55,792 nucleotides of DNA from Clostridia bacterium (GTDB lineage Bacteria > Bacillota > Clostridia > Oscillospirales > CAG-272). How positions within the stretch are numbered: position 1 is the first letter of the stretch; each line of letters starts with the position of its first letter. The notes beneath the pieces are model-generated. The model was not told the origin of the DNA, did not search any database, and saw only the letters and a program-made list of their open reading frames with translations. The DNA is taken from NCBI GenBank assembly GCA_017531765.1, contig JAFXKJ010000156.1, positions 1 to 55,792 of the forward strand, in the 5' to 3' direction. This document shows positions 4,076-29,818 of the stretch, piece by piece. A program made the position numbers and the translations under genes.

Positions 4076-4092
4076 TTTAACCATCGGTTAAA
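4076..4092. promoter_or_regulatory. Palindromic operator, XRE box copy 1
   Basis: TTTAACC-ATC-GGTTAAA, 20 bp upstream of TTGTAA-17-TATAAT (4113-4141). Confidence 0.65.
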
Positions 4093-4193
4093 TTATGTTG
4101 CGTGTGTGTACCTTGTAAACTGAATTTCAACGGTATATAATATAATCACAAACACCGGTGAATGAATTAATATTGTAAAACGAGGTATACAAA

Positions 4194-5318
4194 ATGAATC
4201 TTTATATAGGCGAAAATATAAAACGTCTCCGTAAGCTAAAAAACATAACGCAGGAGACATTGGCTGACCGTATGCACGTGTCGTGTGCCGCGGTGTCAAA
4301 ATGGGAGAGAGGTGAGACACTTCCCGATATCAGCATGGTAATTCCTCTTGCCTCTTATTTCGGCGTATCAACAGACGAGCTTCTCGGACTTGACCACGCA
4401 AAAAACGAGGAAGCTATCCTGAAATATATCAGCGAAGCGGAACGCCTTGCATCTGTCGGAAAAGCTTTTGAACGTTTTGACCTGATAAAGAAAGCTTATG
4501 CGGAATTTCCCAACGATTGGCGCATAGTTGACCTATATCTGTGGCAGCTTCAATACGATCCCAACTGCGAATGTCCTTACGGCAACGAGGTACACAAGAA
4601 TGAGCTTTATGCGCTATGTGAGCGCGTGCTTGAGGAATGTACCGTGGATAAGGTACGTTATTCGGCACTCTCTATCCTCGGCGGACTATATAATCTTGAC
4701 GGTGAACGTGATAAGGCTGTCGAAACCGCAAAACGTTTTCCTCAGTACTGGATGACCGAAGGCGAGGAGCTTGAGGGATGCTATATGGACGATAATGCAC
4801 AGTGGCTGAAGCAGGTACGCCGTAACATTTGGGATCTGACGATGCAGCTGCACGTTAAGCTTCGCAACACTGCACATCATGATAACACCATTGACTCGCA
4901 TGAGACGATCAAGTATCTAAAAAAGGATGTGGATCTGATAAAAATGATATTTGACGACGGTGATTTGGGATTTTATAATATTGAACTGAGCGAGGTATAT
5001 ATGTGGATCGCCAACAGATACGTTATGGTGGGTGATCTTGATCATGCGTTTGAATATTACGAACTCAGCTTCACTCATGCTAAAGAATACGACACATTAC
5101 CCAAGCTCATCACACACACTTCTTTCTTCGTTAAAGACGTACCGCTGGATATGTCTAAGACTAACTCAGATATTGAAGAAAATAGCGTTACGTGTCAAAT
5201 AAACAAGCTTCGTTCATGGGGTGTTTGGGAAACGGTCAAGGATACGCCTCAGATGAAGGCGATCATCGAAAAGTACGAGCCGTTTATGGGTAAGAAGAAG
5301 GATTATTCACGATCATAA
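4194..5318 (+). CDS. XRE-family HTH regulator with helical/TPR-like C-terminal domain
   Basis: IGENIKRLRK..TQETLA..VSCAAVSKWERGETLPDI; about 300 aa alpha-helical tail. Confidence 0.85.
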   Translation: MNLYIGENIKRLRKLKNITQETLADRMHVSCAAVSKWERGETLPDISMVIPLASYFGVSTDELLGLDHAKNEEAILKYISEAERLASVGKAFERFDLIKKAYAEFPNDWRIVDLYLWQLQYDPNCECPYGNEVHKNELYALCERVLEECTVDKVRYSALSILGGLYNLDGERDKAVETAKRFPQYWMTEGEELEGCYMDDNAQWLKQVRRNIWDLTMQLHVKLRNTAHHDNTIDSHETIKYLKKDVDLIKMIFDDGDLGFYNIELSEVYMWIANRYVMVGDLDHAFEYYELSFTHAKEYDTLPKLITHTSFFVKDVPLDMSKTNSDIEENSVTCQINKLRSWGVWETVKDTPQMKAIIEKYEPFMGKKKDYSRS

Positions 5319-5417
5319 GCTTTATATCAACAAAAGCGGCACGTCTCTCATTAGTATAATATTTATTTTTGGTTGGATTTTTCAACTAAAAAATAAGCAA
5401 TAGCCGTAATTTGAGCC

Positions 5418-5450
5418 AAAAAAAACGGACGAGGTCAAACTCGTCCGTTT
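5418..5450 (-). terminator. Intrinsic terminator of ftsZ (possibly bidirectional)
   Basis: AAACGGACGAG-GTCAAA-CTCGTCCGTTT preceded by an A run. Confidence 0.8.
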
Positions 5451-5464
5451 AATATTGTCTATAA

Positions 5465-6568
5465 TCAGTTCTTGCCTCTCTTGAGCATACTGATGATCTC
5501 GGAGATATCATCGTCGGAAACGTTGGACTCTGCAATCTCGGGCATCTCTTCCTTGGGAGCAGGAGCTGCCTTGGGCGCGGGAGCATTTTCCTTCTGAATA
5601 CTGCAGTTATTTGCACTGTTGTCAAATCCTGTAGCAATGATAGTGATCTTCATTCTATCCTCAAGCTCAGGATCGAATGCAACACCCCAGATAACGGTTG
5701 CCTCATCACTTGCCTGATCGGCAATGAGAGAAGAAGCGGTATCGATATCGGAAAGCTCAATATCGGGAGATGCGGTAATGGATACAAGAATACCCATAGC
5801 ACCGTGGATAGTTGTCTCGAGAAGGGGACTGGAGATAGCGTTCATAGCTGCTGTCTCTGCCTTATCCTTACCGGAGCCTTCTCCGATACCCATGTGAGCG
5901 TAACCTGCATCCTTCATGATGGTGGTAACGTCAGCAAAGTCAAGGTTGAGGTACTGAGGAACACTGATAAGCTCGGAGATGCTCTGTACACCGTGGCTGA
6001 GAACATCGTCAGCTACCTTGAATGCGTTCATGAGAGTGATCTTCTCACCGATATCCTTCAACTTTTCGTTGGGGATGATGATGAGAGAGTCAACAAACTG
6101 GCTGAGGCACGCAATACCCTTTTCAGCCTGAGCCATTCTCTTGGGTCCCTCAAACTTGAAAGGCTTTGTTACGATACCTACGGTAAGGATACCCATCTCC
6201 TGAGCGAGACGAGCTACTACGGGAGCCGCACCGGTGCCTGTACCGCCGCCCATACCTGCGGTTACAAACACCATATCAGCGCCGCTGATGGCATTCTTGA
6301 TCTCTTCAATATTTTCTTCTGCCGCACGTGCACCAACCTCAGGGTTAGCACCTGCGCCGTGACCCTTAGTGATCTTCTCACCGATCGGAACCTTTACGGT
6401 TGCGCTGGAGTGAAGAAGGGACTGACTGTCTGTGTTGATGGAAATAAAATCAACACCGCGTACGTTTGTTGTGATCATTCTGTTGATAGCGTTGTTTCCG
6501 CCGCCGCCAACACCTATGACCTTTATGTTTACTTTGCTCTGGGTGTTATCGTTGAACTCAAATGGCAT
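5465..6568 (-). CDS. ftsZ: Cell division GTPase FtsZ
   Basis: [29 protein letters not shown]. Confidence 0.98.
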
Positions 6569-6786
6569 TGTTTTGCCTCCTTATCAAATTTTTACTTCTG
6601 ATAAAATAATTCTACACCTAATATTTTATACCAAAACTTGATTTTTTGCAAGTGTTTTTTGAAAATATTTTAGGCAAATACTCAAAAATCGGCATATTTT
6701 TTTGTTTTTTTTGACCTTTTTGAGTGGCAAAAACAGTCGTATTTGTATTTTAGTCGATTGTCTAACGGTTTTTGGCGTATATCTAA

Positions 6787-7770
6787 CTATTCAAGTTCCA
6801 TCAAATTGTCAATTATGACTCCCGTTTTTCCGTCAGTGGTAAGGTCAATTTTAACCTTGTTATCGGTCTTGAACATATCATCTTCAAGCACCTTTGACGC
6901 GGTCTTTAATTTGTACAGAACGTTCTCATCGTCACCGAATACGAGCTTGAATTTGCCGTCAACTACCATTGTAATGTCAAACTGATCTCTAACATCCACA
7001 AGGGTAACTCTTTCAGCAAGGGGAGAGTTCATCATATTCTGAAGAATGTCTCTTATATCGCGATCCCGTTTTTCACCCGCAAAAGTTATGACTCTTCCCG
7101 TCACCGCATATTTGATCTGCGGCAGCTTCAGCTTGATCAGCCCCTTTGGTACTTCTTCCGTGTCATTTAATGTTTCAAGCACTCGCAAATTATCAGAAAG
7201 AATTTTGTATTCACCGAAAACATCCACGTAGAACACCGCCTTATCTTCAACGACGGTAATCTTCACGTCCCCGGGCATCGTCCTGTCCACCTCTACGCTC
7301 TTGATGTAGGGACAATTAAGGGTTATATTATTTTCAACAGAGCTTGCTCTGAAGGAGTACAGATTTACCCCCTCACCTATTCCCGAGGCTTCAAGAAGCT
7401 CTTCAACACTGTATTTACCGTTCCCCGTAATTTCAATGTTCTTGACTACGAATACCAGCTTGTACACCGCAAGCATCATCATTACGAAAAGAACAAGGAT
7501 AATTAGGAAAAGGACAAGTCCTCTTTTGCGTTTGATGAACTTTCGTCTCTCTCCCGCCTCACGTCTTGCCTCACTCAGTTTTTCTTTACCTCGCGCGGAA
7601 ATCCGCGAAGGCTTTTCTTCCTCGGGCGAAGCATCGTTTCCGTTATCTTTTTCCTCATCGAAATTATAGACCTTACCGCGGTACATCTGCGTTCTGTCCT
7701 CTTTGTTCCCGTGAAAGCTGCGTCCTACAGCACCGCTGTAGAAGTCACCGTCAACACGTTTCCCGATCAC
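6787..7770 (-). CDS. ftsQ: Cell division protein FtsQ/DivIB
   Basis: Single TM then POTRA-like VKNIEITGN...PYIKSVEVDRTMPGDVKITVVE; position between murG and ftsZ. Confidence 0.85.
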   Translation of the reverse strand: MIGKRVDGDFYSGAVGRSFHGNKEDRTQMYRGKVYNFDEEKDNGNDASPEEEKPSRISARGKEKLSEARREAGERRKFIKRKRGLVLFLIILVLFVMMMLAVYKLVFVVKNIEITGNGKYSVEELLEASGIGEGVNLYSFRASSVENNITLNCPYIKSVEVDRTMPGDVKITVVEDKAVFYVDVFGEYKILSDNLRVLETLNDTEEVPKGLIKLKLPQIKYAVTGRVITFAGEKRDRDIRDILQNMMNSPLAERVTLVDVRDQFDITMVVDGKFKLVFGDDENVLYKLKTASKVLEDDMFKTDNKVKIDLTTDGKTGVIIDNLMELE

Positions 7771-7807
7771 GACACTCCCCCCCTTACGAATTTGATTTTT
7801 CTGAGTT

Positions 7808-8938
7808 TTACTTCTTTTCCTCGATCAGCTTTTTTATATCTTTGTAGATCAGATCGTTTGATCCTTCCACGGCGAATTCTCTTATTCTCTCTGACATTAT
7901 CCGTCTTTCATTCTCGCCTTCATCGGAAAGGAGACCTGCCACGGCATCAATAAGCACACCTGTGGAGTTTGCAAGCTCGCTCTCCTCGAACACAAATGCC
8001 GCACCCGCATCGGCAAGAACCTTTGCGTTCTTGTACTGATGATTCTCGGTTACGTTGGGAGACGGAATGAATATGGGACACTTCCCTGCGGAAGCAAGCT
8101 CCGATATTGTAAGCGCACCCGCACGGCAGATTATAATATCAGCCGCCGCCATTTTAACGGGCATATCGTAGATATACTCAACAAGCTGAAGGTTTTCGTA
8201 TTTCGTAAGCCCCAGCTTTTTGAACTCTGCCTTGGCAATATCTCTTTCAATGGTACCCGTTGCATGGATGTGAAGCACCTCGGGATGCTTTGAAGAGTAG
8301 CTCTTCATCAGTTTAAGGACAGCTTCGTTGACCTTTTCGGCACCAAGACTTCCACCATAGGAAAGGATTATCTTCTGATATTTAGGATCGATCTTAAGCT
8401 TTTCTCTTGCCTCTTCTCTTGTGAGACGGGCAAAATCACCCGAAAGCGGATTTCCCACTCTGAGGAGCTTATCACGGCACTTCAACGTTTTTCCCGTTGC
8501 CTCAAAGTTAAGGTATATTCTATCAACCTTATCCTGAAGCATCTTTACAGCCACGCCTGCTATTGCATTGGATTCATGGAGCACGCAGGGCACGCCCATC
8601 ATTGATGCCGCTTTAACTACGGGCCAGCATACGTATCCACCCGTTCCGATCACAATGTCTGGTTTGAATTCACGGATGAGCTTTTTAGCCTTATATGGGG
8701 ACGTTGCGGCAAGCCAAAACGCTCTGATATTTGCAGGAGAGAGAGAACGTCTGATACCGCGGATGTCCACGTGGCGAAGCTCGTAGCCCTTTGCGGGAAC
8801 CAGCTTATTTTCGATGCCCCGTGAGGTTCCGACGAAAATGATCTCGGAATCCGGCTCGTATTTTCTGATTGTTTCAGCGATGGACAGCGCGGGATTAACG
8901 TGGCCTCCCGTACCTCCGCCCGTCAAAATAACTCGCAT
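7808..8938 (-). CDS. murG: MurG GlcNAc transferase (start moved to MRVIL)
   Basis: GGGTGGHVNPA, GTGGYV, HESN, GGSLGA, CRAGA, HQYKNA. Confidence 0.97.
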   Translation of the reverse strand: MRVILTGGGTGGHVNPALSIAETIRKYEPDSEIIFVGTSRGIENKLVPAKGYELRHVDIRGIRRSLSPANIRAFWLAATSPYKAKKLIREFKPDIVIGTGGYVCWPVVKAASMMGVPCVLHESNAIAGVAVKMLQDKVDRIYLNFEATGKTLKCRDKLLRVGNPLSGDFARLTREEAREKLKIDPKYQKIILSYGGSLGAEKVNEAVLKLMKSYSSKHPEVLHIHATGTIERDIAKAEFKKLGLTKYENLQLVEYIYDMPVKMAAADIIICRAGALTISELASAGKCPIFIPSPNVTENHQYKNAKVLADAGAAFVFEESELANSTGVLIDAVAGLLSDEGENERRIMSERIREFAVEGSNDLIYKDIKKLIEEKK

Positions 8939-9040
8939 AATAACCTCCACACAGCCTGAGGCTGCAAAATATACGTTAAGCGGACCGTCATCGGTTTGAT
9001 GTCCGTCAAGCTTTCACGCCAATTTAAGAATATTTTATAT

Positions 9041-10456
9041 TTATATAGATTTTTTTCTGTAATACTGCTTTGATATGGATAGGATTATTCCCATCTCCAG
9101 CATCAGCATGAGCAGCGACGACCCTCCGTATGAGAAGAACGGGAGGGAAATTCCCGTGTTGGGAATAATGTCGCAGACGACCATCATATTGAGAAATGCC
9201 TGCAACGCCACCTGAGTTGTGATACCGAAAACCGTAAGCATTGAAAAGGTATCAGGTGCGCGCATTGCTATTACGTAGCCTCTCCAAATGAATAGAAGGA
9301 ACAGTCCGATAAGAAGAACAGCTCCCACAAAGCCAAGCTCTTCACACCAAATTGTATAAATAAAGTCGTTGTGTGCCTCCGACACATAACCGAATTTCTG
9401 ACGGCTTTCCGAGAACCCCACACCGAAGAGACCGCCCGAGCCGATGGCAAGTACACCTTGAGTTGTCTGCCAGTCTTCAGCCAGGGCATTGGCATTTTCC
9501 GAGGTAAAGGTGGTAATGCGTTTAAGGGCGTAAGGGTTATTCATAAGATATACTACCGCCGCACTCAAACCCGCTACAAGAGCAGTTACGGAAGTATAAA
9601 TAAAGTGACAGCCGCCCACAAGCATTACCGCCACACCAATGGCGCAAACGATAAAGGTTCCCGACAAATGCTTTCCCAAAAGAACGAACCCGCCTGCAAT
9701 TCCGATAAAGCACAGCGGCAAGAGAGTATTTCTTACATATGTGCCGAGGATGCCGTTTCGCTCCTTCATTTTTTCGCGGTATTTGTCGATGTACCATGCA
9801 AGGATCAGCACAATGGCGAACTTCATGATCTCGGATGGCTGTACGTTGATTCCCGCAACATTGATCCATCTCTTGGCTCCCTTTACGGTAACACCTATGA
9901 ACGGAACAGCAATCAACAAAAGCAGGGCAAATAGGTAAGCCGCAATAGCACCCCACTTTTTATACCATGTATAGGGGACCATTGATGCGACGAACATTAA
10001 GATACCGCCTGCCAAAGCAAATCCAAGATGCTTTTTCAGATAATAAAAGCTGTCGCCGTACTCATCCATCGCAGAAGGGTAGCTTGCGCTGTATACCATA
10101 AGTGCGCCAAATGCCACAAGCAGAACGACCAAAGCAAGCATAAGCTTGTCGACGCCTCCGCGGACTCTTTCCACCTCCTGCTGCCACTCTTCTTCACGTT
10201 TTACGGCAGCCAAGGCTCTGTTTTCGCGGCGCGGTACCACAGCTCTGCCTTTTTCGGAATTTCTTCCCACGGCAAGCCTTCTGCCACCGGCTCCCATAGT
10301 AACGCGAGGACGGTTGGAAGCATTCTCCGATGTACCTTGTCTCGTATTTTTCGGAGCATTTGCGCCCCTCTTTGAATCGTAACCTGCCGCGCCTCTGTTC
10401 AAGTTCTGAGGGCGACGTACGGCACGGGGGGGTCTCTTTTTATCATTGTTATTCAT
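9041..10456 (-). CDS. ftsW: SEDS peptidoglycan polymerase FtsW/SpoVE with basic N-terminal extension
   Basis: GAKRWI, QPSE, HNDFIY..EELG, TGISLPFFSYGGSS. Confidence 0.93.
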   Translation of the reverse strand: MNNNDKKRPPRAVRRPQNLNRGAAGYDSKRGANAPKNTRQGTSENASNRPRVTMGAGGRRLAVGRNSEKGRAVVPRRENRALAAVKREEEWQQEVERVRGGVDKLMLALVVLLVAFGALMVYSASYPSAMDEYGDSFYYLKKHLGFALAGGILMFVASMVPYTWYKKWGAIAAYLFALLLLIAVPFIGVTVKGAKRWINVAGINVQPSEIMKFAIVLILAWYIDKYREKMKERNGILGTYVRNTLLPLCFIGIAGGFVLLGKHLSGTFIVCAIGVAVMLVGGCHFIYTSVTALVAGLSAAVVYLMNNPYALKRITTFTSENANALAEDWQTTQGVLAIGSGGLFGVGFSESRQKFGYVSEAHNDFIYTIWCEELGFVGAVLLIGLFLLFIWRGYVIAMRAPDTFSMLTVFGITTQVALQAFLNMMVVCDIIPNTGISLPFFSYGGSSLLMLMLEMGIILSISKQYYRKKSI

Positions 10457-17911: not shown

Positions 17912-18850
17912 TTACAGCTTTTCGCAAATTCTGAGCTTTGCGCTTCTTGCTCTGGGATTACTTTCTATTTCCTCATGGGAGGGAATGATGGGTTTCTTTG
18001 TTAAAAGCTTCACCTTCGGTTTGTTCCCGCACACGCATATGGGAAACTCGGGCGGACACGTACAACCTTCAGCGAGGCTTGTCATCGTCTGCTTTACGAG
18101 CCTGTCTTCCAAGGAGTGGAAGGTGATGAGTGCAGCTCTGCCTCCCGCGTTCAGACGTCTTACCGCCTCCTCAACGGAAGGGCGGATCACATCCAGCTCT
18201 GAGTTAATGAACACGCGCAGAGCCTGAAAGCTGCGTTTGGCAGGATGTTGGGATTCTTTGCATCTCGCCGCCGCGGGCATTGCATCCTTGATGATATCCG
18301 CAAGCTGAAGCGTTGTTTCTATGGGCGCTGTTTCTCTTTTCTTTACGATCGCCGCGGCGATCTTTGCGGCAAACTTTTCTTCCCCGTAGGTTGAAATGAT
18401 CCTTCTCAGCTCACTCTCCGAGTAGTTATTAACTACGAACGCCGCATCAAGGGAGGACGTTCTGTCCATTCTCATGTCCAACGGCGCGTCGTTCATATAG
18501 GAAAATCCTCTTTCAGGCGTATCAAGCTGGTAGGAGGAAACTCCCAGGTCCCACATAACGCCGTCGATCTTCTCAATACCGAGGCTGTCAAGGGCAGCGC
18601 CTATGGAGGAAAATTCACATTTCACAAGGGTGACTTTATCCATGAAGTCCGCAAGCCTAATTCTGCAAGCGGCAAGAGCATCGTCATCGCGGTCAAGGCA
18701 AATAAGTCTTGAGCCCTCGGGAAGTCGGGATGCGATACCGAAGGAGTGTCCGCCGCCGCCTGCTGTACAGTCGACGTAAACTCCACCTCTCTCGGGAGCG
18801 AGAGCAGTCATACATTCGTCAAAGAGGATGGATACGTGCTTAAATTCCAT
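17912..18850 (-). CDS. rsmH: 16S rRNA m4C1402 methyltransferase
   Basis: VDCTAGGGGHS, DLGVSSYQLD, PLDMRMD, FHSLEDR, NPRARSAKLR. Confidence 0.97.
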   Translation of the reverse strand: MEFKHVSILFDECMTALAPERGGVYVDCTAGGGGHSFGIASRLPEGSRLICLDRDDDALAACRIRLADFMDKVTLVKCEFSSIGAALDSLGIEKIDGVMWDLGVSSYQLDTPERGFSYMNDAPLDMRMDRTSSLDAAFVVNNYSESELRRIISTYGEEKFAAKIAAAIVKKRETAPIETTLQLADIIKDAMPAAARCKESQHPAKRSFQALRVFINSELDVIRPSVEEAVRRLNAGGRAALITFHSLEDRLVKQTMTSLAEGCTCPPEFPICVCGNKPKVKLLTKKPIIPSHEEIESNPRARSAKLRICEKL

Positions 18851-18864
18851 TGTCGCACCTCGCA

Positions 18865-19284
18865 TCAGAGACCCAGACGGGCAAGAGTCTCTGCGTAATT
18901 CTCAGGCTCTTCTCCCATTTTCTGCTCGATCCATCTTTCCTCAGCCCAGATCTCAGCGTACTTACCGCATCCGACGGTAATAACATTCTTTGTGATACCT
19001 GCAAAATCGATCATTGCCTGAGGAAGAAGAACTCTTCCCTGAGAGTCGGGTTGTACTTCGATGGCGTTGGAATATATATATCTTGCAACAGCTTTTGCCT
19101 CACTCTTTGTGAGCTCGTTAAACTTTGCTGTGTAGTTCTTCCATTCCTCTTCGGAATAAACACACAGACATTTCTCCGAATCCTTGATGATGGTAATGTT
19201 GCCTCCAAGCTGTTCCTTGAGCTTAGCAGGAATGATCAGCCTGTTTTTGGCGTCTATTGAATGCTGATGTTTGCCTGTCAACAC
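18865..19284 (-). CDS. mraZ: MraZ transcriptional regulator
   Basis: HSIDAKNRLIIP and DSQGRVLLP (two DxxxR motifs), EIW; first gene of the dcw cluster. Confidence 0.95.
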   Translation of the reverse strand: MLTGKHQHSIDAKNRLIIPAKLKEQLGGNITIIKDSEKCLCVYSEEEWKNYTAKFNELTKSEAKAVARYIYSNAIEVQPDSQGRVLLPQAMIDFAGITKNVITVGCGKYAEIWAEERWIEQKMGEEPENYAETLARLGL

Positions 19285-19724: not shown

Positions 19725-20510
19725 TCACAATATTTTTTTAATTCGCTCCGTCTCTTTGCGGAAAAATTCCGCGTAGCTGTCAAAATTTTCGTTTTCCATC
19801 ACTTCGATAAGAGACATTGCACGATCTATCTCACGTATTGCGCGGGAGTTTTCCCCAACGAATTCGTAATACTCCGCAGTTTTGAAGATCATCTGAACAA
19901 GATTCTCAAAGGAGATCCACTTTTGCTTCTCTGCGGCATCAAACATAGGCTTTCCCTCGAGCAGATACGCCACTTCAGTTAGTTTTGTGAAGTAAATTTC
20001 GGGAATCTGCTCCACCGCGGCTTGGGCGCTCACCAAATCACCCTTGGCTTTATAAGCGTAAGCGAGGAATCTGAGGGCATCGTATTTCACGTCGGGCATT
20101 ACGGTTTTTGTGGCAAGCTTCGACGCCAATGCTATGGTCTCGTCGGGATTTTCGCTGTAGTTTATGACGTAGAGAAGATTGTTTAAGAGAATATCGCTTG
20201 AGGGGTATTTTGCAAGTCCCTCTTCAAGAATACGCCTCCCACGGGCAGGGTCGCTTTCCCTGTATTTATACGCTTCACTGCAGATCTTCTCGATCTCCGA
20301 ATCCGCCTCTCGCAAATTGAAGTCAAACAGCTCGTCAAGGGTTACTCCGAAATACGCCGCAAGTGACGGTGCTATGGTAATGTCGGGCAGACTTATCCCA
20401 CATTCCCATTTACTCACTGCCTGGAAGGTCACACCTATGCTGTCGGCAAGCTGTTCCTGGGTTACGCCCCGTCCATGTCTGAGTTCTTTAATTTTATTTC
20501 CGATATTCAT
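19725..20510 (-). CDS. XRE-family HTH regulator with TPR-like C-terminus (start moved to MNIGNK)
   Basis: IGNKIKELR..TQEQLA..VTFQAVSKWECGISLPDI. Confidence 0.85.
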   Translation of the reverse strand: MNIGNKIKELRHGRGVTQEQLADSIGVTFQAVSKWECGISLPDITIAPSLAAYFGVTLDELFDFNLREADSEIEKICSEAYKYRESDPARGRRILEEGLAKYPSSDILLNNLLYVINYSENPDETIALASKLATKTVMPDVKYDALRFLAYAYKAKGDLVSAQAAVEQIPEIYFTKLTEVAYLLEGKPMFDAAEKQKWISFENLVQMIFKTAEYYEFVGENSRAIREIDRAMSLIEVMENENFDSYAEFFRKETERIKKIL

Positions 20511-20620
20511 ATTTTTGATCATGCCTTTCACCATCATGTTATCGTAAGGCGGCGCCTGCCTTCCGATTTGATTATAGCACAGGAGGCATAGTGGGTCAAT
20601 AAACGGCTGAGTTACGTTTT

Positions 20621-20637
20621 TTCAACCGCGGGTTGAA
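20621..20637. promoter_or_regulatory. Palindromic operator, XRE box copy 2
   Basis: TTCAACC-GCG-GGTTGAA, 21 bp upstream of minus-strand TTGACC(20599-94)-17-TATAAT(20576-71). Confidence 0.65.
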
Positions 20638-20645: not shown

Positions 20646-22058
20646 TCACTGAAAATACCTGTCAACAGCTTCGTTCACTGCTCTAGGCTCTGCCCTTCCG
20701 CGGGAGAGCTTCATCACCTGACCCACGATCACTTTTTTCGCGGTCAGCTTACCTTTTTTGATTTCCCGCACGGCACTTTCGCATTCCTCCGCCGCCTCTT
20801 CAACAAGTCGCATGATCTCCCACTCATCGCGAAGCATGAACATACCGTGCTTTCCCGCCAGGTCACGGGGAGATTCGCCCGTTTTCCCGCAAAGCTTCAG
20901 AAGCTCCCTTGCCGAAACGATATTCACTTCCCCATCAAGGTACATATGAAGGCACTGAAGAAATGCCTCAACAGAGGGATAAACATCCCCTGACGTCATT
21001 TTAGGGATCACATCCGACACAAACAAATTGGCACCTGCGGGTATATCGGAGGCGGAAAGCTTCACCTTTTCAAAACAGTCCGCAAACATAGGCTCACTGC
21101 ATATCAGCTCAGCCTGCTCTTTTTTCACTCCCGATGCTATCAGCTCCGCTTCAATTTCACATGGCAGTGCGCGCATCTCACCTCTCACCCTCTCCACGTA
21201 TTCTCTGTCAGTCTTAAGGGGCAGGATGTCGGGTTCTCTGATGTATTTATAGTCAGCGGTGGTCTCTTTGTCGCGCATTCTTTCGGACACGCCCTTCGTC
21301 TCACTGAAACGCCGGGTCTCGGTGACTATCTTACCTCCCGAGAGGATAATGTCGGTCTGTCTTTTCAGCTCACTGTCTATAGCTTTGCCGATAAAGCTTA
21401 CCGAGTTGATATTCTTGATCTCGCACCGTCTGCCGAGAGACGTCCCGCCCACGGGACGAACGGACACGTTCACGTCGCATCTCAGCGAGCCTTCGTTCAT
21501 TTTGCAGTCGGAAACCTCGGCAAAAAGGAGAGTTCTGCGAAGCTCATTTACAAAAGCCATTGCCTCCTCCGAGCCTATCATGTCTGGGTAAGTCACGATC
21601 TCCACAAGAGGCACGCCGCATCTGTTGTGATCGATTATCAAGAGGTCTCCGTCGCGCTTCAGCTTACCCGCATCCTCTTCAATGTGAAGACGTTCGATCC
21701 TCACGGTCTTTTCGCCCATTGAGGTCTTTATCTTCACTTCACCGTTTTTGCATATGGGATCGTAAAACTGTGTGATCTGATACCCTTTTGGAAGATCGGG
21801 ATAAAAATAGTGCTTTCTGTCAAAGCGGGAAATCTCGGAGGTCTCACATCCAAGTGCAAGTCCTGCCTTCACCGCCAGCTTTACCGCCTCGGGGTTCACC
21901 ACGGGAAGAGCCCCCGGCATACCGAGACAAACGGGACAGCATTTTGAGTTCATCTCACCGCCGTACTCCGCAGAGCAGGTACAAAAGGCTTTTTCCTTAG
22001 TCTTCAGTTCCACGTGAACTTCAATTCCAACAACGGCTTCGTAGCCTTTGTATATCAT
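20646..22058 (-). CDS. gatB: Asp/Glu-tRNA amidotransferase subunit B
   Basis: GIEVHVEL, CPVCLGMPG, YFYPDLPKGYQITQ, HIEEDAG, EGSLRCDVNVS. Confidence 0.93.
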   Translation of the reverse strand: MIYKGYEAVVGIEVHVELKTKEKAFCTCSAEYGGEMNSKCCPVCLGMPGALPVVNPEAVKLAVKAGLALGCETSEISRFDRKHYFYPDLPKGYQITQFYDPICKNGEVKIKTSMGEKTVRIERLHIEEDAGKLKRDGDLLIIDHNRCGVPLVEIVTYPDMIGSEEAMAFVNELRRTLLFAEVSDCKMNEGSLRCDVNVSVRPVGGTSLGRRCEIKNINSVSFIGKAIDSELKRQTDIILSGGKIVTETRRFSETKGVSERMRDKETTADYKYIREPDILPLKTDREYVERVRGEMRALPCEIEAELIASGVKKEQAELICSEPMFADCFEKVKLSASDIPAGANLFVSDVIPKMTSGDVYPSVEAFLQCLHMYLDGEVNIVSARELLKLCGKTGESPRDLAGKHGMFMLRDEWEIMRLVEEAAEECESAVREIKKGKLTAKKVIVGQVMKLSRGRAEPRAVNEAVDRYFQ

Positions 22059-23431: not shown

Positions 23432-23744
23432 CGCTTTCCTCCGTACACTCAACAGCTCTGTTCTGCACTATCACAACTCCGCCGTCACCTCTGCGCTTCA
23501 GGCACTCACTTGAAGCAGAAGTGCTTCTCGTAATATCATCGGGTGAGATGGCACAATACCCGAAAGGCTTACCGTCGGCATCTCCCGTCAGATGGAGTCC
23601 CGTCTCAGAGTTTTCCGCACCCTCAAGCACACCCCCAAGTCCAATATCCGAAAAGCCGTTATATTCATCTGCCGAAAGTGTCACGCCACCCCGACGCGCA
23701 CTCAAGGCAGCCGCAGAATATTCAATATACTCTTTAACCATCAA
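23421..23744 (-). CDS. Highly divergent GatC-like protein
   Basis: 107 aa, directly upstream of and overlapping gatA; only the C-terminal GGVVIVQNRAVE resembles the GatC tail; call is mainly positional. Confidence 0.5.
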   Translation of the reverse strand: MMVKEYIEYSAAALSARRGGVTLSADEYNGFSDIGLGGVLEGAENSETGLHLTGDADGKPFGYCAISPDDITRSTSASSECLKRRGDGGVVIVQNRAVECTEESDEQ

Positions 23745-24580
23745 AGCTTCAGCTCCTTTAGCAATTTTATTTCCTCGGCATATCCGTCAAGGTCGCAGGG
23801 AGTTTCAAGATAAAAAGGTATTTCCTTCAACCACGGATGATTTATAAGATATGCCATAACTTCAAGGGGTACCTTCCCCTCTCCAAGTCTCTCGTGACGG
23901 TCCTTCGAAGAGCCCATTTCGTTTTTGCTGTCGTTCATGTGAACTGCCTTCAGATATTTCCTGCCCACAACCTTGTCGAACTCCATGAGAACAGCTTCAG
24001 GGTCACTTGCCAAAGGGTAACCTCCGTCGTGAACATGGCACGTATCAAGGCAAACTCCCACGTGCTCTCTCAGCGTGGGGGTCAGCTTATCTATCACAGC
24101 GGCAAGCTCCTCGAAGTTCCTGCCAAGCTCAGTCCCCTTACCTGACATGGTCTCAAGAAGCACCGTGGTCCCCATCCCTTCCCACATTATTTCGCAAAGC
24201 ATATCGGAGATGTGATCAATTCCCACAGCGACACCTTGTCCCACGTGACATCCGGGGTGGAAATTGTACATCGCCCCCGGAATCGACTCAAGAAAACGCA
24301 GCTCTTCGCCCATAGCTCTCTTTGTGTACTCCCTGATCTCGACATCCTTGGAGCATGGATTATAGGTGTACGGCGCATGGGCAAGGGGAGCCTTCATACC
24401 GTTTTCCTTAAGTATCATACAAAAAGAGTTAACGTCATCGGGACTTGGGAGATTTCCGCTTGAACGCCCTCTCGGATTTTTCGTGAAAAACTGAAAAGTA
24501 TTGGCACCGATAGCCAGTGCCCTGCTGCCCATTGCCGCATATCCTTCCGCAACCGACAGATGACAACCTATATAAAACAT
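23741..24580 (-). CDS. nfo: Endonuclease IV (AP endonuclease)
   Basis: IGCHLS, FFTKNPR, HAPY, FHPG, LETMSGKG, DTCH, HMNDS, DRH, ETP. Confidence 0.95.
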   Translation of the reverse strand: MFYIGCHLSVAEGYAAMGSRALAIGANTFQFFTKNPRGRSSGNLPSPDDVNSFCMILKENGMKAPLAHAPYTYNPCSKDVEIREYTKRAMGEELRFLESIPGAMYNFHPGCHVGQGVAVGIDHISDMLCEIMWEGMGTTVLLETMSGKGTELGRNFEELAAVIDKLTPTLREHVGVCLDTCHVHDGGYPLASDPEAVLMEFDKVVGRKYLKAVHMNDSKNEMGSSKDRHERLGEGKVPLEVMAYLINHPWLKEIPFYLETPCDLDGYAEEIKLLKELKL

Positions 24581-24695
24581 CTCATGAACCTCCATAGATA
24601 ATGTCTTCTTTACCCTTTTCCGAAGAAATAATAGCAAAATCTGCGATTTTTCATATCATATCGGGAATCTTTACCGTGTAGTCATACTTTTATAT

Positions 24696-24724
24696 TTGAC
24701 AAAACGAGTTATTAGTGGTAGAAT
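24696..24724 (+). promoter_or_regulatory. Sigma-A promoter
   Basis: TTGACA-17bp-TAGAAT with TG extension. Confidence 0.7.
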
Positions 24725-24844
24725 GTATGTATATACTTATTATATCAAATCTCAAACGATAAAGCAACCCATTCGGCGCGGAAGTTGCCGCAAGGTAAAT
24801 TCAGTCTTCCGTGTCAGGAAGCTACGTCTTCAAATATCAGAGAA

Positions 24845-25765
24845 ATGAAAAATAAAAAATCTCATATATTTTCTCTTAAATGGATCGTAAACAGAATCAA
24901 AGCAGGGTTTGCCGTCATAGATGAGGATCGTGTTACCGTATACGCAGCACAGGCTTCGTTCTTTATAGTTATTGCCGCAATTCCGTTCATCATGCTGCTT
25001 TTCAGTGTTTCGAGATACATTATTCCCGAAAGATTTTACGATATAATGATCGCTTTCGGAAATAATATTCCCGGCGGAATCCGAGAGCTTTATATGTCGA
25101 TTATAGACGAAATGATGGCGCGTCCCGAAATGCAGCTTATCTCGATAACTGCGGTGATCACGTTCTGGACGGTCTCAAGAGGCATGGCATCCGTAAAAGA
25201 CGGAGTTGCCACCGTTTATAAATCCCCCGCCCCGAAATCCTTTATCCGCGGCGTTCTCAGCTCCTTCGCGTACACGGCAGTGTTTATCGTTCTCATTATT
25301 GCCGCAATTGCCATACTGCTTTTCGGAGAACAGCTGAATTCAACTTTACTCGAGCACTTTGAAATTTTCAAAAGCTTCAGAAGCGTGTTCGAATACAGAA
25401 ACGTAATTTTCTACGTGATCTTAGCTCTCTTTTTCACTCTCCTCTATTACTCGGTGGGCAGACGCAGCACCCTACCCGGTAAGCATTTTTTCAGCCATGT
25501 TCCCGGAGCGCTTGTAGCATCTGCAGGTTGGCTTCTCTTCTCGTATTTCTACTCCCTCTATACAATATATTTCACTGACGTATCATATATCTACGGAAGC
25601 CTTACGGCGATCGTACTTCTTCTCTTCTGGCTGTACTGCTGTATGATAATCATGCTTTGCGGCGCGGAATTCAATAAGCTTTGGGCAATGTTCGGCAGAC
25701 ATATCACAAGAAAGATCAAAATACGCCGAGAGATCAAGAAATCAAACGCTCAAGTTAAATATTAA
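24845..25765 (+). CDS. YihY/virulence factor BrkB family membrane protein
   Basis: AAQASFFIVIAAIPF, PGALVAS, YIYGSL..LLFWLY, GAEFN; multiple TMs. Confidence 0.88.
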   Translation: MKNKKSHIFSLKWIVNRIKAGFAVIDEDRVTVYAAQASFFIVIAAIPFIMLLFSVSRYIIPERFYDIMIAFGNNIPGGIRELYMSIIDEMMARPEMQLISITAVITFWTVSRGMASVKDGVATVYKSPAPKSFIRGVLSSFAYTAVFIVLIIAAIAILLFGEQLNSTLLEHFEIFKSFRSVFEYRNVIFYVILALFFTLLYYSVGRRSTLPGKHFFSHVPGALVASAGWLLFSYFYSLYTIYFTDVSYIYGSLTAIVLLLFWLYCCMIIMLCGAEFNKLWAMFGRHITRKIKIRREIKKSNAQVKY

Positions 25766-25769
25766 ACTT

Positions 25770-25810
25770 AAAAAGCAGGTTTTTCCACAGTGTGGTTTAG
25801 CCTGCTTTTT
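25770..25810 (+). terminator. Intrinsic terminator
   Basis: AAAAAGCAGG...CCTGCTTTTT. Confidence 0.7.
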
Positions 25811-25998
25811 GTGTTTGGCCGGCACATTTTACGGATATTTTCGCCTTTTATGTTGTAAAAATCGAAAAATCTCGTTTTTTTTCAATTTTTTTTAGAAAAA
25901 AGCGGGACAAGCCTGATTTTTATGATATAATAGTGTGAGAGAGTATGGGAATTCCTCAATTATAACCTTGCCGTATCTCGGCAGAACGGAGAATCATT

Positions 25999-27381
25999 AT
26001 GACTTTTATAAATGAAGCACCGAAGCAGGTGCCCGTAATTCACGAAGCTGACATTTGTGTTATCGGCGGTTCGGCAACAGGAGTTTTTGCCGCTGTAAGA
26101 GCTGCAAGACTTGGTGCTAAGGTAGTGATCGTAGAATGTCAGAACAGTTTCGGAGGCGTTGCATCCAACGGTCTTGTAGGTTTATGGCATACATTTTTAT
26201 CAACAGACTTTAAGACACAGGTTATCTCAGGTCTTACAGAAGAAACCTTAAGCCGCTTTGACGAGGTCGACCATACAATACACGGTGCGGATGATGCAAA
26301 GTCTCACGTATTCAATCCCGTTGAACTGAAGTGCGAGCTTGACTGTATGCTTCAGGAGTGCGGCGTTAAGATCTACCTTCATACTTACTATGCGGGTATT
26401 GCTACAGACGGCAGGGATATTAAGGCAATTTTCGTTGAAAACAAGGACGGAAGAGGCGCTATCAAGGCTAAGTTCTTCATTGACGCTACAGGTGACGGCG
26501 ACCTTTGTCGTGACCTTAAGATCGCAAGATTTGAAAACGATCACATACAGCCTCCCACATACGTATTCCTCCACCAGGGAGACGACCAGATCATCGTTGA
26601 CAGATGTCAGATCGTAGGAAGCGATCCCATCACTCACCTTCTCAACGAGCACTGCGAGGAGTTCGACATTGAGCGCGACTGGGGTTGGGCTGTAAAGATT
26701 CCCGGTCTCAATAAAATGAAGATGAGAGCAAATACTCACGTGTTCAACGTAAACTGCGCCAAGGCTGACGACCTTACGTACGCTGAGCTGAAGGGACGCG
26801 AGAAGATGCGCAAGATAAACAAGCTTCTCAGAAAGTACGGCGACCCGAACGAGACTTACTCCATCGTGTCCGATTGCTCTTACATCGGCATCAGAGACAC
26901 TTATCACTACAAGACAAAGTATCAAGCTAACTCCCTTGATCTTCTCATGGGTAAAAACTACGACGACTGTATCCTCCGCGGTACATACAACGTAGACGCT
27001 CACCATGACAAGGAGGGTATCAAGTTCCTCAGACTTGACGGTACATATTCCGTTGAGGATTCCTACGGCAACATCCGTGAGGGTAACTGGAGAGCCGAGC
27101 AGGGACTTCCCACAGACGGACCCATGCCCACGTTCTATCAGCTTCCCTTCAAGGCTATCGTTCAGGAGGATTACAACAATCTTATCGCCGCAGGCCGTAT
27201 GATCAATGCAGACGCATCTGCATTCGGCGCGCTCAGAGTCATGGTAAACCTCAACCAGATCGGTGAGGCTGCAGGAGTTGCGGCATACCTTGCTATTCAT
27301 CAGAACAAGGCAATTCAGGACGTATGCGGTGTTGAGGTTGCAAAGACCATGTCCGCAGGCGGTAGCGCAAACCTTGGTTGA
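25999..27381 (+). CDS. FAD-dependent oxidoreductase (FAD_oxidored family)
   Basis: DICVIGG..GVFAAVRAARLG..VE, FIDATGDGD, NLIAAGR, GEAAG. Confidence 0.88.
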   Translation: MTFINEAPKQVPVIHEADICVIGGSATGVFAAVRAARLGAKVVIVECQNSFGGVASNGLVGLWHTFLSTDFKTQVISGLTEETLSRFDEVDHTIHGADDAKSHVFNPVELKCELDCMLQECGVKIYLHTYYAGIATDGRDIKAIFVENKDGRGAIKAKFFIDATGDGDLCRDLKIARFENDHIQPPTYVFLHQGDDQIIVDRCQIVGSDPITHLLNEHCEEFDIERDWGWAVKIPGLNKMKMRANTHVFNVNCAKADDLTYAELKGREKMRKINKLLRKYGDPNETYSIVSDCSYIGIRDTYHYKTKYQANSLDLLMGKNYDDCILRGTYNVDAHHDKEGIKFLRLDGTYSVEDSYGNIREGNWRAEQGLPTDGPMPTFYQLPFKAIVQEDYNNLIAAGRMINADASAFGALRVMVNLNQIGEAAGVAAYLAIHQNKAIQDVCGVEVAKTMSAGGSANLG

Positions 27382-27414
27382 TCTTTCCCAAAAAGCAAAA
27401 AATATAAGTATAGC

Positions 27415-27451
27415 TTCCGCAAACCGATAAAGTCGGTTTGCGGAATTTTTT
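27415..27451 (+). terminator. Intrinsic terminator
   Basis: TTCCGCAAACCGA-TAAAG-TCGGTTTGCGGAA-TTTTTT. Confidence 0.85.
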
Positions 27452-27511
27452 ATAAAACAACAAATTATGACGGAAATATTTATAAAACTGTTTTTTTTTT
27501 TGGGAATTCCA

Positions 27512-27540
27512 TTGACAACACTATAATATTTTGTTAAAAT
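27512..27540 (+). promoter_or_regulatory. Sigma-A promoter of the small membrane protein/lgt pair
   Basis: TTGACA-17bp-TAAAAT with TG extension. Confidence 0.7.
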
Positions 27541-27590
27541 ACAGAAGGAACATAATTCCAAAAAAGCAATATTACGAAAGGAGTTTTATC

Positions 27591-27896
27591 ATGGGTAAGA
27601 ACCAAGCAATCGCCGGTTTTGTCATGAGCATCGTTGGTATTGTATTTGCTATCCTCTCCGGTTGGCTCTCAATTATCGCGCTTCCCATTTCAATCGTAGG
27701 TCTTGTTCTCGCTGTTATCGGTGGCAAGAAGCTTCGTGCAGCAGGTCAGCCTTCCGGTCTCGCTACAGCAGGTCTCGTACTCGGCATCATCGCCGTAGTA
27801 TTCTCTGCTATCGCATTCTTCACTTGCGGTATCTGCATTATCTGTGCAGCAAGCAGTACAGCAGCAGCTGAATCTGCTATAAGCTCTCTGTTTTAA
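27591..27896 (+). CDS. Small 3-TM membrane protein, DUF4190-like, with C-terminal CxxCxxC
   Basis: AIAGFVMSIVG...GLATAGLVLGII...FFTCGICIICAA; GAAAGGAG SD before ATG 27591. Confidence 0.75.
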   Translation: MGKNQAIAGFVMSIVGIVFAILSGWLSIIALPISIVGLVLAVIGGKKLRAAGQPSGLATAGLVLGIIAVVFSAIAFFTCGICIICAASSTAAAESAISSLF

Positions 27897-27967
27897 TTAA
27901 CAGAACAACCTGGGGCTGTTACACAATATAAGTGTGACAGCCCAACATGATTTATTAAGAGATATTT

Positions 27968-28723
27968 ATGCCATTTATAAACATTTTTTCAAAACAGATC
28001 CCTCTATACGGAGTGATGTTCTATATTGGAATTGCCATGGCAGCCATCGTCGCTGTTAGTATATGTAAAAAGCGCGGTTTACCCGCATTTGAAATTGTAT
28101 ATTCAGCAGTTTACGTTATGATCGGTGCTCTGTTTGGTTCAAAGCTTTTGTTTATCATCGTATCTTGGGATGAAATAATAAAGTATGATCTTTCGTTGAT
28201 ACAAGTTATCAAAGGAGGGTTTGTCTTTTACGGTGGGCTTATCGGCGGAGCATTGGGTCTGATAATTTATACACGTCAGTTCGCAATGAAGCTGATTGAT
28301 TTTGTTGACGTATACGCGACCGTTTTACCTCTCGGACACGCTTGCGGAAGAGTAGGTTGTTTCTTTGCTGGGTGCTGTTACGGAATGGAGTACGATGGAT
28401 TTCTGTCGCACACATATACCGCCTCTGCAGGTCTAACCCCTCTCGGTATTCCGCTTTTTCCCATACAACTTATAGAAGCTGTCTGCTTACTTGTACTGTT
28501 CGCCATACTATTGGCTGTATATTTCAAGTCAAAAAAGTTTGGATTCGTAAGCAAGGTCTATCTTGTATCATATTCGATATTACGTTTTGTCCTTGAATTT
28601 TTCAGGGGCGACGCCGAACGAGGTAAGCTATTTCTTCTGTCAACATCACAGTGGGTAAGTATATTACTTGTCATTTTAGTTATCACTTTAACTGCCGCAA
28701 AAAAGCTCAAAGAAAAGGAATAA
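27968..28723 (+). CDS. lgt: Prolipoprotein diacylglyceryl transferase (Lgt) family protein, Cys-rich variant
   Basis: LYG, GGFVFYGGLIGG, GRVGCFFAGCCYG, FPIQLIE, RFVLEFFRGD, STSQW. Confidence 0.8.
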   Translation: MPFINIFSKQIPLYGVMFYIGIAMAAIVAVSICKKRGLPAFEIVYSAVYVMIGALFGSKLLFIIVSWDEIIKYDLSLIQVIKGGFVFYGGLIGGALGLIIYTRQFAMKLIDFVDVYATVLPLGHACGRVGCFFAGCCYGMEYDGFLSHTYTASAGLTPLGIPLFPIQLIEAVCLLVLFAILLAVYFKSKKFGFVSKVYLVSYSILRFVLEFFRGDAERGKLFLLSTSQWVSILLVILVITLTAAKKLKEKE

Positions 28724-28742
28724 GAAAGCTTTTTCACAAGCC

Positions 28743-28826
28743 TTGGTTAAGTTGATAAAAGAGGCAGACTCCCCAACGGAGGCTCAAACCGAAATTCAGC
28801 CATCACTTTTCAGTGGTGGCTTTTTT
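28743..28826 (+). ncRNA. Candidate structured small RNA unit followed by an intrinsic terminator
   Basis: Possible pairings TTGGTT/AACCGA, CTCC/GGAG and GTTG/CAAC (pseudoknot); then AGCCATCACT-TTTC-AGTGGTGGCT-T run. Confidence 0.35.
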
Positions 28827-28879
28827 CATACGTATAAAGCAAATCCCCCCACATGGGGGGGGGAGGAGGCAGAAAAAGT

Positions 28880-29698
28880 TCATCCTATGAGAAACTGAGA
28901 AACGGTGTAATTCTTTTTATTGAGTATATACATTGCCGACAGTACCATGTAAGGGACAATACCGCAATGACCGCAGATCAAGTATCCTCTGTCTTCAGTT
29001 CGATTGTCTGCAACAAATTCAATGATACGGTTTTCGGTAAATAAAAGTAAAAGCTCATTCAAACGGGATAATTCAATATCAGCTTTTTCGATCAGTGTTT
29101 GTTTCGGTGTGGGACTGTCACTCCCTAGAGCAAGAATCAGCTTTTGTCCGTCTTCACTGCAAAGTTCCTGCATTACTTCCGTCGTATTTGAGTCGAAGGC
29201 ATAGAGTTGCTTGATAAGTGATGATTTAATAACACAAGCCACACCCACATCATCCCAAATTTTCGTTCCATATGAACCTATAATTCTGAGATTCCCTTGA
29301 TTCTTGCTTTCCTCTTGCAATTTTCTGTTACCGACCTCAGCAAAAAATATCCCCTTCCACATTTGCCAAAGATCTTCTCCGAGCTCTTTCCTGAGATTAC
29401 TGCTATAACGGTCGCAGTTTGCCATTGACCAAACAAATTCTGTCGCAAGCTGTTCTATTTTACTTGCCACAGCATCAAGATCACCGCTTGATTCGGTTTC
29501 GAGAAGAACATCTGCGGAAATTTTGTAAACGTCGCTAATCGCCTTCAGATTAAAGCAATCGGGCAAACAATCTCCGCTTTCCCATTTTGAGATAGCCTGT
29601 GCAGAAACACCTACTTTTTCTGCAACCTCTTCCTGCGTCATACCAAGCTTCTTTCTATGATTTCGAAGCTTTTCACCAAATATCTTTTGATCTAACAT
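28880..29698 (-). CDS. XRE-family HTH regulator with unknown C-terminal domain
   Basis: FGEKLRNHRK..TQEEVA..VSAQAISKWESGDCLPD; GGAGG SD. Confidence 0.85.
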   Translation of the reverse strand: MLDQKIFGEKLRNHRKKLGMTQEEVAEKVGVSAQAISKWESGDCLPDCFNLKAISDVYKISADVLLETESSGDLDAVASKIEQLATEFVWSMANCDRYSSNLRKELGEDLWQMWKGIFFAEVGNRKLQEESKNQGNLRIIGSYGTKIWDDVGVACVIKSSLIKQLYAFDSNTTEVMQELCSEDGQKLILALGSDSPTPKQTLIEKADIELSRLNELLLLFTENRIIEFVADNRTEDRGYLICGHCGIVPYMVLSAMYILNKKNYTVSQFLIG

Positions 29699-29801
29699 AT
29701 ATATCCTCCAAGATTTTTTCGAGATAGCTATCTTGTGAGTATATTATATCACGCGAGAAATCAACTTACAATAGTAAGAATGTTGAGTTTTATTATATGA
29801 A

Positions 29802-29818
29802 TTCAACTTCAGGTTGAA
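29802..29818. promoter_or_regulatory. Palindromic operator, XRE box copy 3
   Basis: TTCAACT-TCA-GGTTGAA, 30 bp upstream of minus-strand TTGTAA(29771-66)-17-TATAAT(29748-43). Confidence 0.6.

Follow-up and report, generated by a model that had tools for sequence, protein, structure and literature searches.

Autoregulated XRE and RRNPP regulators are textbook material, and dimers of the lambdoid repressors bind dyads of 14–18 bp with an uncontacted centre and exert positive autoregulation from a promoter-adjacent site. The present analysis concerns a stretch of 55,792 nucleotides from a Clostridia bacterium (Oscillospirales, CAG-272; assembly GCA_017531765.1, contig JAFXKJ010000156.1, positions 1 to 55,792). 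In this whole stretch, hereafter the window, a palindromic box stands upstream of the promoters of three dispersed genes for XRE regulators with a helix-turn-helix (HTH) domain. Among the described systems, RRNPP regulators bind palindromic boxes as dimers and commonly autoregulate, and RstA of C. difficile is its own repressor, acting at a repeat over the -10 element (PMC6414698). In S. pyogenes, the paralogs Rgg2 and Rgg3, an activator and a repressor, compete for one conserved site next to or overlapping the -35 element (PMC3509411); of the systems studied by experiment, this one comes closest to paralogs with a common site. Unlike the sites of Rgg2/Rgg3 (over the -35) and RstA (over the -10), the box leaves the -35 intact and lies 20 or 30 bp upstream of it. 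Our data suggest that the box is an operator read by the XRE-family, RRNPP-like regulators encoded just downstream of it, which would make each unit an auto- and cross-regulatory cassette, and we put the probability of this reading at about 0.62. The basic logic of an autoregulated HTH regulator is known; what is unusual is the boundary of the cassette and how strong the comparative signal is.

Box 1 (TTTAACCATCGGTTAAA, positions 4076–4092) reads TTTAACC-ATC-GGTTAAA and is a perfect 7-3-7 dyad. Box 2 (TTCAACCGCGGGTTGAA, 20621–20637), which on the strand of its gene reads TTCAACC-CGC-GGTTGAA, is also a perfect dyad, and Box 3 (TTCAACTTCAGGTTGAA, 29802–29818; TTCAACC-TGA-AGTTGAA on the gene strand) is symmetric in six of its seven pairs. 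A consensus scan predicted a promoter of sigma-A type downstream of each box: TTGTAA-17-TATAAT for gene 1 (4113–4141, forward strand), followed by the motif ATAATCAC that is common to several paralog promoters; TTGACC-17-TG-n-TATAAT for gene 2 (20571–20599, reverse strand); and TTGTAA-17-TG-n-TATAAT for gene 3 (29743–29771, reverse strand). The gap from box to -35 is 20, 21 and 30 bp for genes 1, 2 and 3, and the distance from the end of the box to the start codon is 101, 110 and 103 bp, respectively. Relative to transcription starts inferred from these predicted promoters, the box centres lie at about -64 for gene 1 (start near 4148), -64/-65 for gene 2 (start near 20564) and -74 for gene 3 (start near 29736). 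Gene 1 (4194–5318, forward) encodes a regulator of 374 aa with an N-terminal HTH_3 domain, the recognition helix SCAAVSKWE and a long helical C-terminal part. Gene 2 (19725–20510, reverse) encodes 261 aa with HTH_3, the helix TFQAVSKWE and a domain like tetratricopeptide repeats (TPR); its start at 20510 is backed by its orthologs, which open with MNIGNK. Gene 3 (28880–29698, reverse) encodes 272 aa with HTH_3, the helix SAQAISKWE and a C-terminal part apparently without TPR character. Pfam HTH_3 was found in genes 1, 2 and 3 with E values of 2e-15, 5e-13 and 5e-14 (56.9, 49.2 and 52.5 bits against a gathering cut-off of 23); they are the only HTH_3 genes on this contig, and the whole genome has 32 HTH_3 matches. 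An alignment showed the recognition region V[ST]x[AQ]A[VI]SKWExG..LPD to be common to the three, and their C-terminal parts gave no BLASTP hit among one another. The upstream neighbours, an open reading frame (ORF) at 3398–4030, gatB at 20646–22058 and a leucine-rich repeat (LRR) protein at 30010–31167, are all co-directional with their XRE genes, and none of the three XRE genes has a divergent partner beside it. An earlier note on this DNA, made from the letters alone, had already described this arrangement, and our measurements agree with it on the exact box positions, the gaps to promoters with a 17-bp spacer, the distance of about 100–110 bp to the starts, the common recognition region with dissimilar C-termini and the lack of a divergent target gene.

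The pattern TTYAACYNNNRGTTRAA (TTYAACY-N3-RGTTRAA) matched the window three times, compared with a mean of 0.01 over 100 shuffles, none of which reached three. These are also its sole matches in the whole source assembly (2,229,016 bp in 160 contigs, 74.8% complete), and all three lie at XRE promoters. The pattern was derived from the same three sites, and therefore the raw count is post hoc and the location is the real signal. A weight matrix trained on 44 sites, all from other genomes, gave 13 hits of at least 15 bits in the source assembly, of which seven lie 89–117 bp upstream of XRE starts, where about 0.006 were expected. Weaker dyads with the core YAAC-N5-GTTR were present 89–117 bp before four further XRE genes of this genome (two on contig C118, one each on C124 and C145); about 20 of its 32 HTH_3 matches have the S(K/R)WExG..PD type. 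The earlier note had proposed to scan the genome and its relatives for the pattern; in 40 relatives, the strict pattern gave 14 sites in 11 genomes (reversed control, 3), and nine of the 14 precede XRE genes. In a set of 300 further genomes of the family, 19 of the 29 fetched sites lie 134–153 nt before an XRE HTH motif (20 when one locus judged by eye is counted), and most of the remaining ones fall within ORFs; the signal in this set is one of location rather than of abundance.

Sampling that was blind to the box gave the same picture. In the genus sample, genes were picked by HTH similarity without regard to the box (the best 150 of 277 matches, from 20 genomes). At 85–130 bp from the start, 29 of 117 units from the 19 other genomes scored at least 12/14, or 36 of 125 when eight rows duplicating box-selected loci were restored, whereas three control windows gave 0–1 of 117 and the everted pattern 0 of 117. 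Eighty orthologs of gene 2, with 48–84% identity, were fetched from public genomes regardless of the box, mostly from metagenome-assembled genomes of animal-gut Acutalibacteraceae and Oscillospiraceae. The box is perfect in 55 of them, scores at least 13/14 in 71 and at least 12/14 in 76. It scores at least 11/14 in all 22 parsed gene 3 orthologs and at least 12/14 in 14 of the 18 parsed relatives of gene 1 type, counts that omit loci without a parsable start codon (6 of 28 and 11 of 29, respectively). In 14 other families of the order, 17 of 27 best HTH matches have the box, mostly 20–22 bp from a -35. The dyad architecture thus spans many XRE paralogs per genome across the genus, the family and the order, and the window is one local sample of it; the circuit of three paralogs that the earlier note had suggested gives way to this wider arrangement. 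A chance origin of the boxes was rejected by the window shuffles, the genome-wide count of the pattern and the box-independent genus sampling.

The pattern of conservation within the box is that of a protein site. When 63 distinct gene 2 promoters were stacked on the box, both half-sites carried about 2 bits per position, and the sequence 5' of the box showed no conservation. The central triplet varies freely (25 versions in the 76 gene 2 promoters with a score of at least 12/14), and the innermost pair (positions 7 and 11) is non-complementary in 54 of these 76. Conserved half-sites, a variable centre and a non-complementary inner pair argue for a protein site and not a hairpin, and half-site centres one helical turn apart are the sequence signature expected of a dimeric DNA-binding protein. 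The spacing to the promoter is equally rigid. Of the same 76 gene 2 orthologs, 71 have a gap of exactly 20 bp to the -35, and of 22 gene 3 orthologs, 21 have one of 30 bp, so that the one-turn offset of copy 3, to which the earlier note had drawn attention, is a fixed property of its ortholog group. Across 63 genus units, the gap is 20–21 bp in 34 and 30–32 bp in 12, with an off-phase gap of 25–26 bp in five. Despite these five, the site centres share a face of the helix at an interval of one turn, with an intact -35 downstream, as is the case for class I activators. A search for a second operator or extra half-sites near the promoter returned only a weak positional excess (8 of 59 units at +32/33), and this candidate was rejected.

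Several further features of these promoters were observed. The gene 2 orthologs have, at +6 to +23 after the box, a conserved TCGtTT and a GTTA directly before the TTG of the -35 (together GTTATTG, at about 2 bits per position); from the GTT of this element to that of the right half-site is a distance of 22 bp. Both elements are absent from the gene 1 consensus, the group with which they were compared. In most gene 3 orthologs the box is an asymmetric hybrid, TTCAACC-N3-GGTAGAA, whose right-half variant tends to accompany P over A at position 2 of the helix (14 of 16 vs 1 of 7). A sequence that joins the -10 to the start region, TATAAT[AG]T[AG]ATCAC (4136–4149 in the window, and also on contigs C118, C71 and C130), occurs seven times in the genome, five times before XRE genes, and is a second promoter feature common to several paralog cassettes.

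The boxes of the window belong to two sub-types: that of gene 1, TTTAAC, goes with an xA helix, and those of genes 2 and 3, TTCAAC, go with an xQ helix. This division recurs among the paralogs. Where position 3 of the helix is Q, base 3 of the half-site is C in 82 of 94; where it is A, as in gene 1, base 3 is T in 13 of 24, giving TTTAAC or ATTAAC. In the DK subfamily, 11 of 12 units have a perfect YTCTAC-N5-GTAGAR, a dyad that none of 138 other units has, and a paralog with the helix STSAVSLWE has TTTGAGC-CGC-GCTCAAA at the corresponding position. The presence of the box at a score of at least 11/14 also varied with helix type: 37 of 67 for Q..K, 8 of 9 for A..K, 3 of 25 for Q..R and 0 of 11 for DK. 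The DK-type regulators (about 208 aa, roughly one copy per genome; C3:3549–3704 and ten further loci) have their own dyad, CTCTAC-N5-GTAGA(G/A), at a distance of 39–224 bp from the start.

The unit of box, promoter and gene appears to move as a whole. Gene 2 stands between gatB and mraZ only in the source genome and its closest relative, and in 65 ortholog loci the upstream neighbours fall into 49 clusters and the downstream ones into 44, which leaves essentially no synteny. None of the nucleotide alignments of gene 2 extends beyond the box edge at 20637, except that of the one syntenic locus. Gene 3 is patchily distributed, being present in 27 of 301 sampled genomes of the family and 21 of 97 genera; none of the five congeners in this sample has it, and another congener (G009) has a gene 3-type unit. 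Five genomes from other genera have gene 3 at 81–89% identity, with an FtsZ that is only 57–67% identical. The nucleotide similarity of gene 3 between genera runs from just beyond the stop codon to 29790–29818 and ends at the outer edge of the box, and its 3' limits vary (28786–28964). In the 200 nt after the stop codon of gene 2, no second box or conserved 3' element was found at 75 loci (median best matrix score, 0.4 bits). These alignments support a self-contained cassette that would relocate as a unit of box, promoter and gene, much as the earlier note had supposed. Since the operator travels with the gene into new hosts, the simplest arrangement would be one in which its binder is encoded in the cassette. 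Two copies of gene 3 (G127 and G051) carry in-frame stops.

The proteins resemble two groups of known regulators. The nearest HTH sequences were those of P22 C2, the 434 repressor, SinR, ImmR, Rgg and ComR, with E 1.6e-8 for P22 C2 against gene 3. The predicted model of gene 2 is all-helical (predicted local distance difference test, pLDDT, 92.5), and the best Foldseek matches in the PDB are all RRNPP receptors, namely PlcR–DNA (3u3w, E 4e-6), ComR–DNA (5jub), Rgg2/3, PrgX, NrpR and ElrR. The top 16 hits all belong to PlcR, ComR, Rgg2 or PrgX, with E values of 4e-6 to 6e-4; the probability of the best matches is 1.0, with low TM-scores of 0.26–0.40. Gene 2 alone of the three is thus modelled as an HTH joined to a peptide-receptor fold of RRNPP/TPR type, that is, with the predicted N-terminal Cro/C1-type HTH and C-terminal TPR-like helical sensor of PlcR, ComR, Rgg2/Rgg3, PrgX and RstA. 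For the C-terminal part of gene 1, an Atlas lead of 0.96 to clusters in which 10–53% of members carry TPR families is a lead towards a TPR-like domain, and this part is distantly related to five other paralogs of the genome of about 350–375 aa. The C-terminal part of gene 3 was modelled, at low confidence (pLDDT 67.8), as mixed alpha/beta and not TPR-like. This pairing of a common HTH with unlike sensor parts is in line with the earlier note.

The differences from the RRNPP systems go beyond the low TM-scores of gene 2 and the apparently non-TPR sensor part of gene 3. The site is found in the promoters of the regulators themselves, in dozens of paralogs of each genome, and not at genes for targets or peptides. 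No conserved neighbouring gene for a pro-peptide was found: in 63–75 gene 2 orthologs, neither the sequence 5' of the box nor that 3' of the stop codon showed conservation, a result that does not extend to the small ORFs below gene 2, which were not compared. The lambdoid repressors (P22 C2, 434 cI and lambda cI) provide the closest solved HTH sequences, and the window helix ..AISKWE.. resembles what we take to be ..AISQWE.. in P22 C2. Unlike them, the window genes are chromosomal sensor paralogs and not prophage immunity genes, have a single operator rather than a tripartite right operator (OR), place the centre of the site at -64 or -74 instead of about -42, and lack a cro-like divergent partner.

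Taken as an operator of the adjacent regulators, the box would be a dyad of two TTYAACY half-sites with centres 10 bp apart and a central 3 bp that is not contacted. XRE/RRNPP-like dimers would bind this dyad at their own promoter and thereby regulate their own synthesis. Paralogs with matching helices, such as the products of genes 2 and 3, may also occupy one another's sites and form a cross-regulated network, in which gene 1 would represent a neighbouring specificity class and the differing C-terminal sensor domains would supply different inputs. As the helices (xQAVSKWE and xAAVSKWE) are nearly the same and the operators are nearly the same, paralogs are to be expected at one another's promoters. 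The dyad variants that match the helix, together with similarity that ends at the box, favour self-binding and hence auto- and cross-regulation. The operator would act from a stereospecific position upstream of the -35, centred at about -64 or, with one more helical turn, at about -74. Its constant phase relative to an intact -35 downstream suggests contact with RNA polymerase, through the C-terminal domain of its alpha subunit, or with promoter-proximal DNA or protein, and not simple occlusion of the core promoter. As to the direction of regulation, positive control of the class I kind may be the leading candidate, though at somewhat under even odds; negative control would follow it, and an effect that depends on conditions would be the least probable of the three. 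A more far-reaching version, in which dozens of RRNPP-like XRE sensors per genome across the Oscillospirales would use a common operator, at a fixed position of the class I kind in their own promoters, and form one fully connected auto- and cross-regulatory network that pools many sensory inputs and is built of transferable plug-in cassettes of about 1 kb, is a tentative idea that we think less likely to be right than wrong. A cassette that brings both the common operator and a compatible HTH would join the resident network on arrival.

Several observations weigh against an operator of the adjacent regulators. The helix is no predictor of the box, given that 30 of the 67 units with a Q..K helix, among 140 genus units, have no box of at least 11/14. 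The earlier note had pictured one family reading a common operator; what remains of that idea is a real dyad that is under selection, linked to promoters and tied to XRE genes, but the common SKWE helix is non-discriminating, and the three window boxes divide into two sub-types. The link between helix and operator variant comes from a small number of lineages. When helix type was tested against box with independent pairs on the HTH tree, one pair on supported branches and 11 on all branches were obtained, too few to have power; shared descent could therefore produce the same pattern. The strict pattern is also only about 1.4 times as abundant as its reversed control in the 300 further family genomes (about 61 vs about 43 sites). 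Neither direction of control fits easily. A weak, activator-dependent core promoter was not found: the -10 is a perfect TATAAT in all three window promoters, with a TG extension in two of them, and the -35 elements match the consensus at four or five of six positions. Such near-consensus core promoters argue against a need for activation, and a site at -64 is unusual for simple repression. Finally, boxes are nearly absent from other genes, with one in the source genome, at an ORF of 18 codons, so the boxes do not account for downstream targets of the regulators.

This 18-codon ORF, MTSLYVTDVVLLTSEAAI, lies in an unlinked unit on contig C127 (2073–2310). Its box TTTAACCAACAGTTGAT is followed after 20 bp by TTGACA-17-TATACT, and the unit has a strong ribosome-binding site and two terminator hairpins. 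It is retained in one congener (locus L346 in G009) with 81% nucleotide identity and an intact ORF. The ORF may encode a peptide or serve as a leader, controlled through the same operator.

The competing explanation that survives best, although we regard it as improbable, is that the box is the operator of another trans-acting regulator, either a master regulator of the whole order or a global factor such as Spo0A, which would control the XRE family while the adjacent XRE protein does not bind. A separate regulator would account well for a near-identical box before many paralogs with unrelated C-termini and for the box-less units with the same Q..K helix, and a position upstream of the -35 is typical of accessory activators. 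A gene for Spo0A (Response_reg and Spo0A_C domains) is itself in the window at 31719–32558 on the reverse strand, 2 kb from gene 3, and the half-site GTTGAA differs by one base from GTCGAA, which we take to be the core of the 0A box. However, the T that separates GTTGAA from the 0A box is near-invariant, and the repeat of the box is inverted. Boxes for Spo0A are arranged in tandem. Any separate regulator is further opposed by the dyad variants of the subfamilies, which follow the recognition helix of the adjacent gene, by an operator that moves with the gene between genera and forms the edge of the transferred DNA, and by the near confinement of the boxes to XRE promoters.

It is distinctly unlikely that the palindrome is primarily a recombination or mobility site at the 5' end of the cassette, either att-like or a hairpin for a recombinase or HUH transposase, with the link to the promoter being secondary. 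The ends of the gene 3 similarity and of the gene 2 alignments at the outer box edge would be expected of such a site, as would the change of gene 2 context in almost every species, and the genome is rich in hairpin-bearing interspersed repeats, some of which have a CAACC-N3-GGTTG stem. On the other hand, unlike integron-like or att-flanked gene cassettes, these cassettes have no conserved 3' element or second box and their 3' limits vary (no search was made for recombinase genes beside them), the distance to the -35 is held rigidly at 20 or 30 bp, the inner pair is mostly non-complementary, and the variants of the dyad follow the HTH. That the box is a nucleic-acid hairpin, serving as a terminator or insulator against read-through from a co-directional upstream gene or as an RNA element, is very improbable. 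In its favour, all three window boxes follow co-directional genes, Box 2 begins 9 bp past the gatB stop codon, and the fold of Box 1 and its flanks has an energy of -9.6 kcal/mol (z -4.6). Against it, none of the three boxes is terminator-like or has a T tract, the folds of Boxes 2 and 3 reach only -6.7 and -5.2 kcal/mol, values that 15–16 of 200 shuffles equal or surpass, and a separate terminator (29992–29971) serves the LRR gene upstream of Box 3, about 150 bp further up. Moreover, the sequence of the box is conserved and its pairing is not, the larger of the upstream ORFs runs divergently in 22 of 61 gene 2 orthologs, and the box lies upstream of the predicted promoter and so would be outside the XRE transcript. 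The terminator or hairpin reading was rejected on the missing T tract, the weak folds and the non-complementary inner pair. A known RNA family at the boxes was also rejected, the sole Rfam match in the window being a 6S (SsrS) RNA elsewhere, at 41169–41387 on the forward strand (47.2 bits against a gathering score of 46.4).

The interspersed repeats of the genome were noted separately. They are modular, resemble repetitive extragenic palindromes or miniature inverted-repeat transposable elements, and often lie at contig ends (C9, C57, C58, C59, C114, C146, C151, C156 and others). One module, ggggc-AACAACCGTAGGTTGTT-gtcgcatttcgcg, is present in nine copies, and its hairpin has the same CAACC-N3-GGTTG core as the operator. 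A remnant of a repeat, beginning gcgaaatgcgac, lies between the LRR gene and Box 3 at about 29880–29960 of the window. On contig C72 (3179–6732), a pair of inverted repeat copies with ATCAACC-N3-GGTTGAT flanks about 3.5 kb that hold ORFs of 444 and 476 aa; the inverted similarity of the flanks is at least 25 bp, counted in flanks of 40 nt. This region may be a transposon-like element. In the window itself, the cassettes of genes 1 and 2 bracket a cluster for division and cell wall with mraZ (18865–19284), rsmH (17912–18865), ftsQ (6787–7770) and ftsZ (5465–6568). Gene 2 is directly upstream of mraZ in the same direction, and gene 1 is convergent with ftsZ.

In the literature, a full-text search found no description of this motif or of an XRE operator shared in the Oscillospirales. 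A study of C. thermocellum by DNA affinity purification sequencing (DAP-seq) describes, in its available sections, other Xre motifs (PMC8457756). A survey of RNA motifs in the human microbiome lists, in the part available, 15 conserved candidate motifs directly upstream of HTH_XRE genes (PMC8040213), and its motif tables may include this promoter region. One operator that is common to a large, expanding family of paralogs, stands in a fixed helical phase and marks the edge of a transferable one-gene cassette was not found in the literature searches. The box provides a concrete cis-element for annotating the numerous genes that are listed only as "helix-turn-helix transcriptional regulator", and it makes testable what orphan RRNPP-like receptors without a neighbouring peptide gene regulate. 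If the operator reading is true, the pairs of HTH and operator (TTCAAC, TTTAAC and CTCTAC) would be ready-made orthogonal or cross-reactive pairs with mapped candidate specificity residues. If the proteins bind each other's promoters, the cassettes would constitute a natural, densely cross-wired sensor network in abundant uncultured gut Clostridia.

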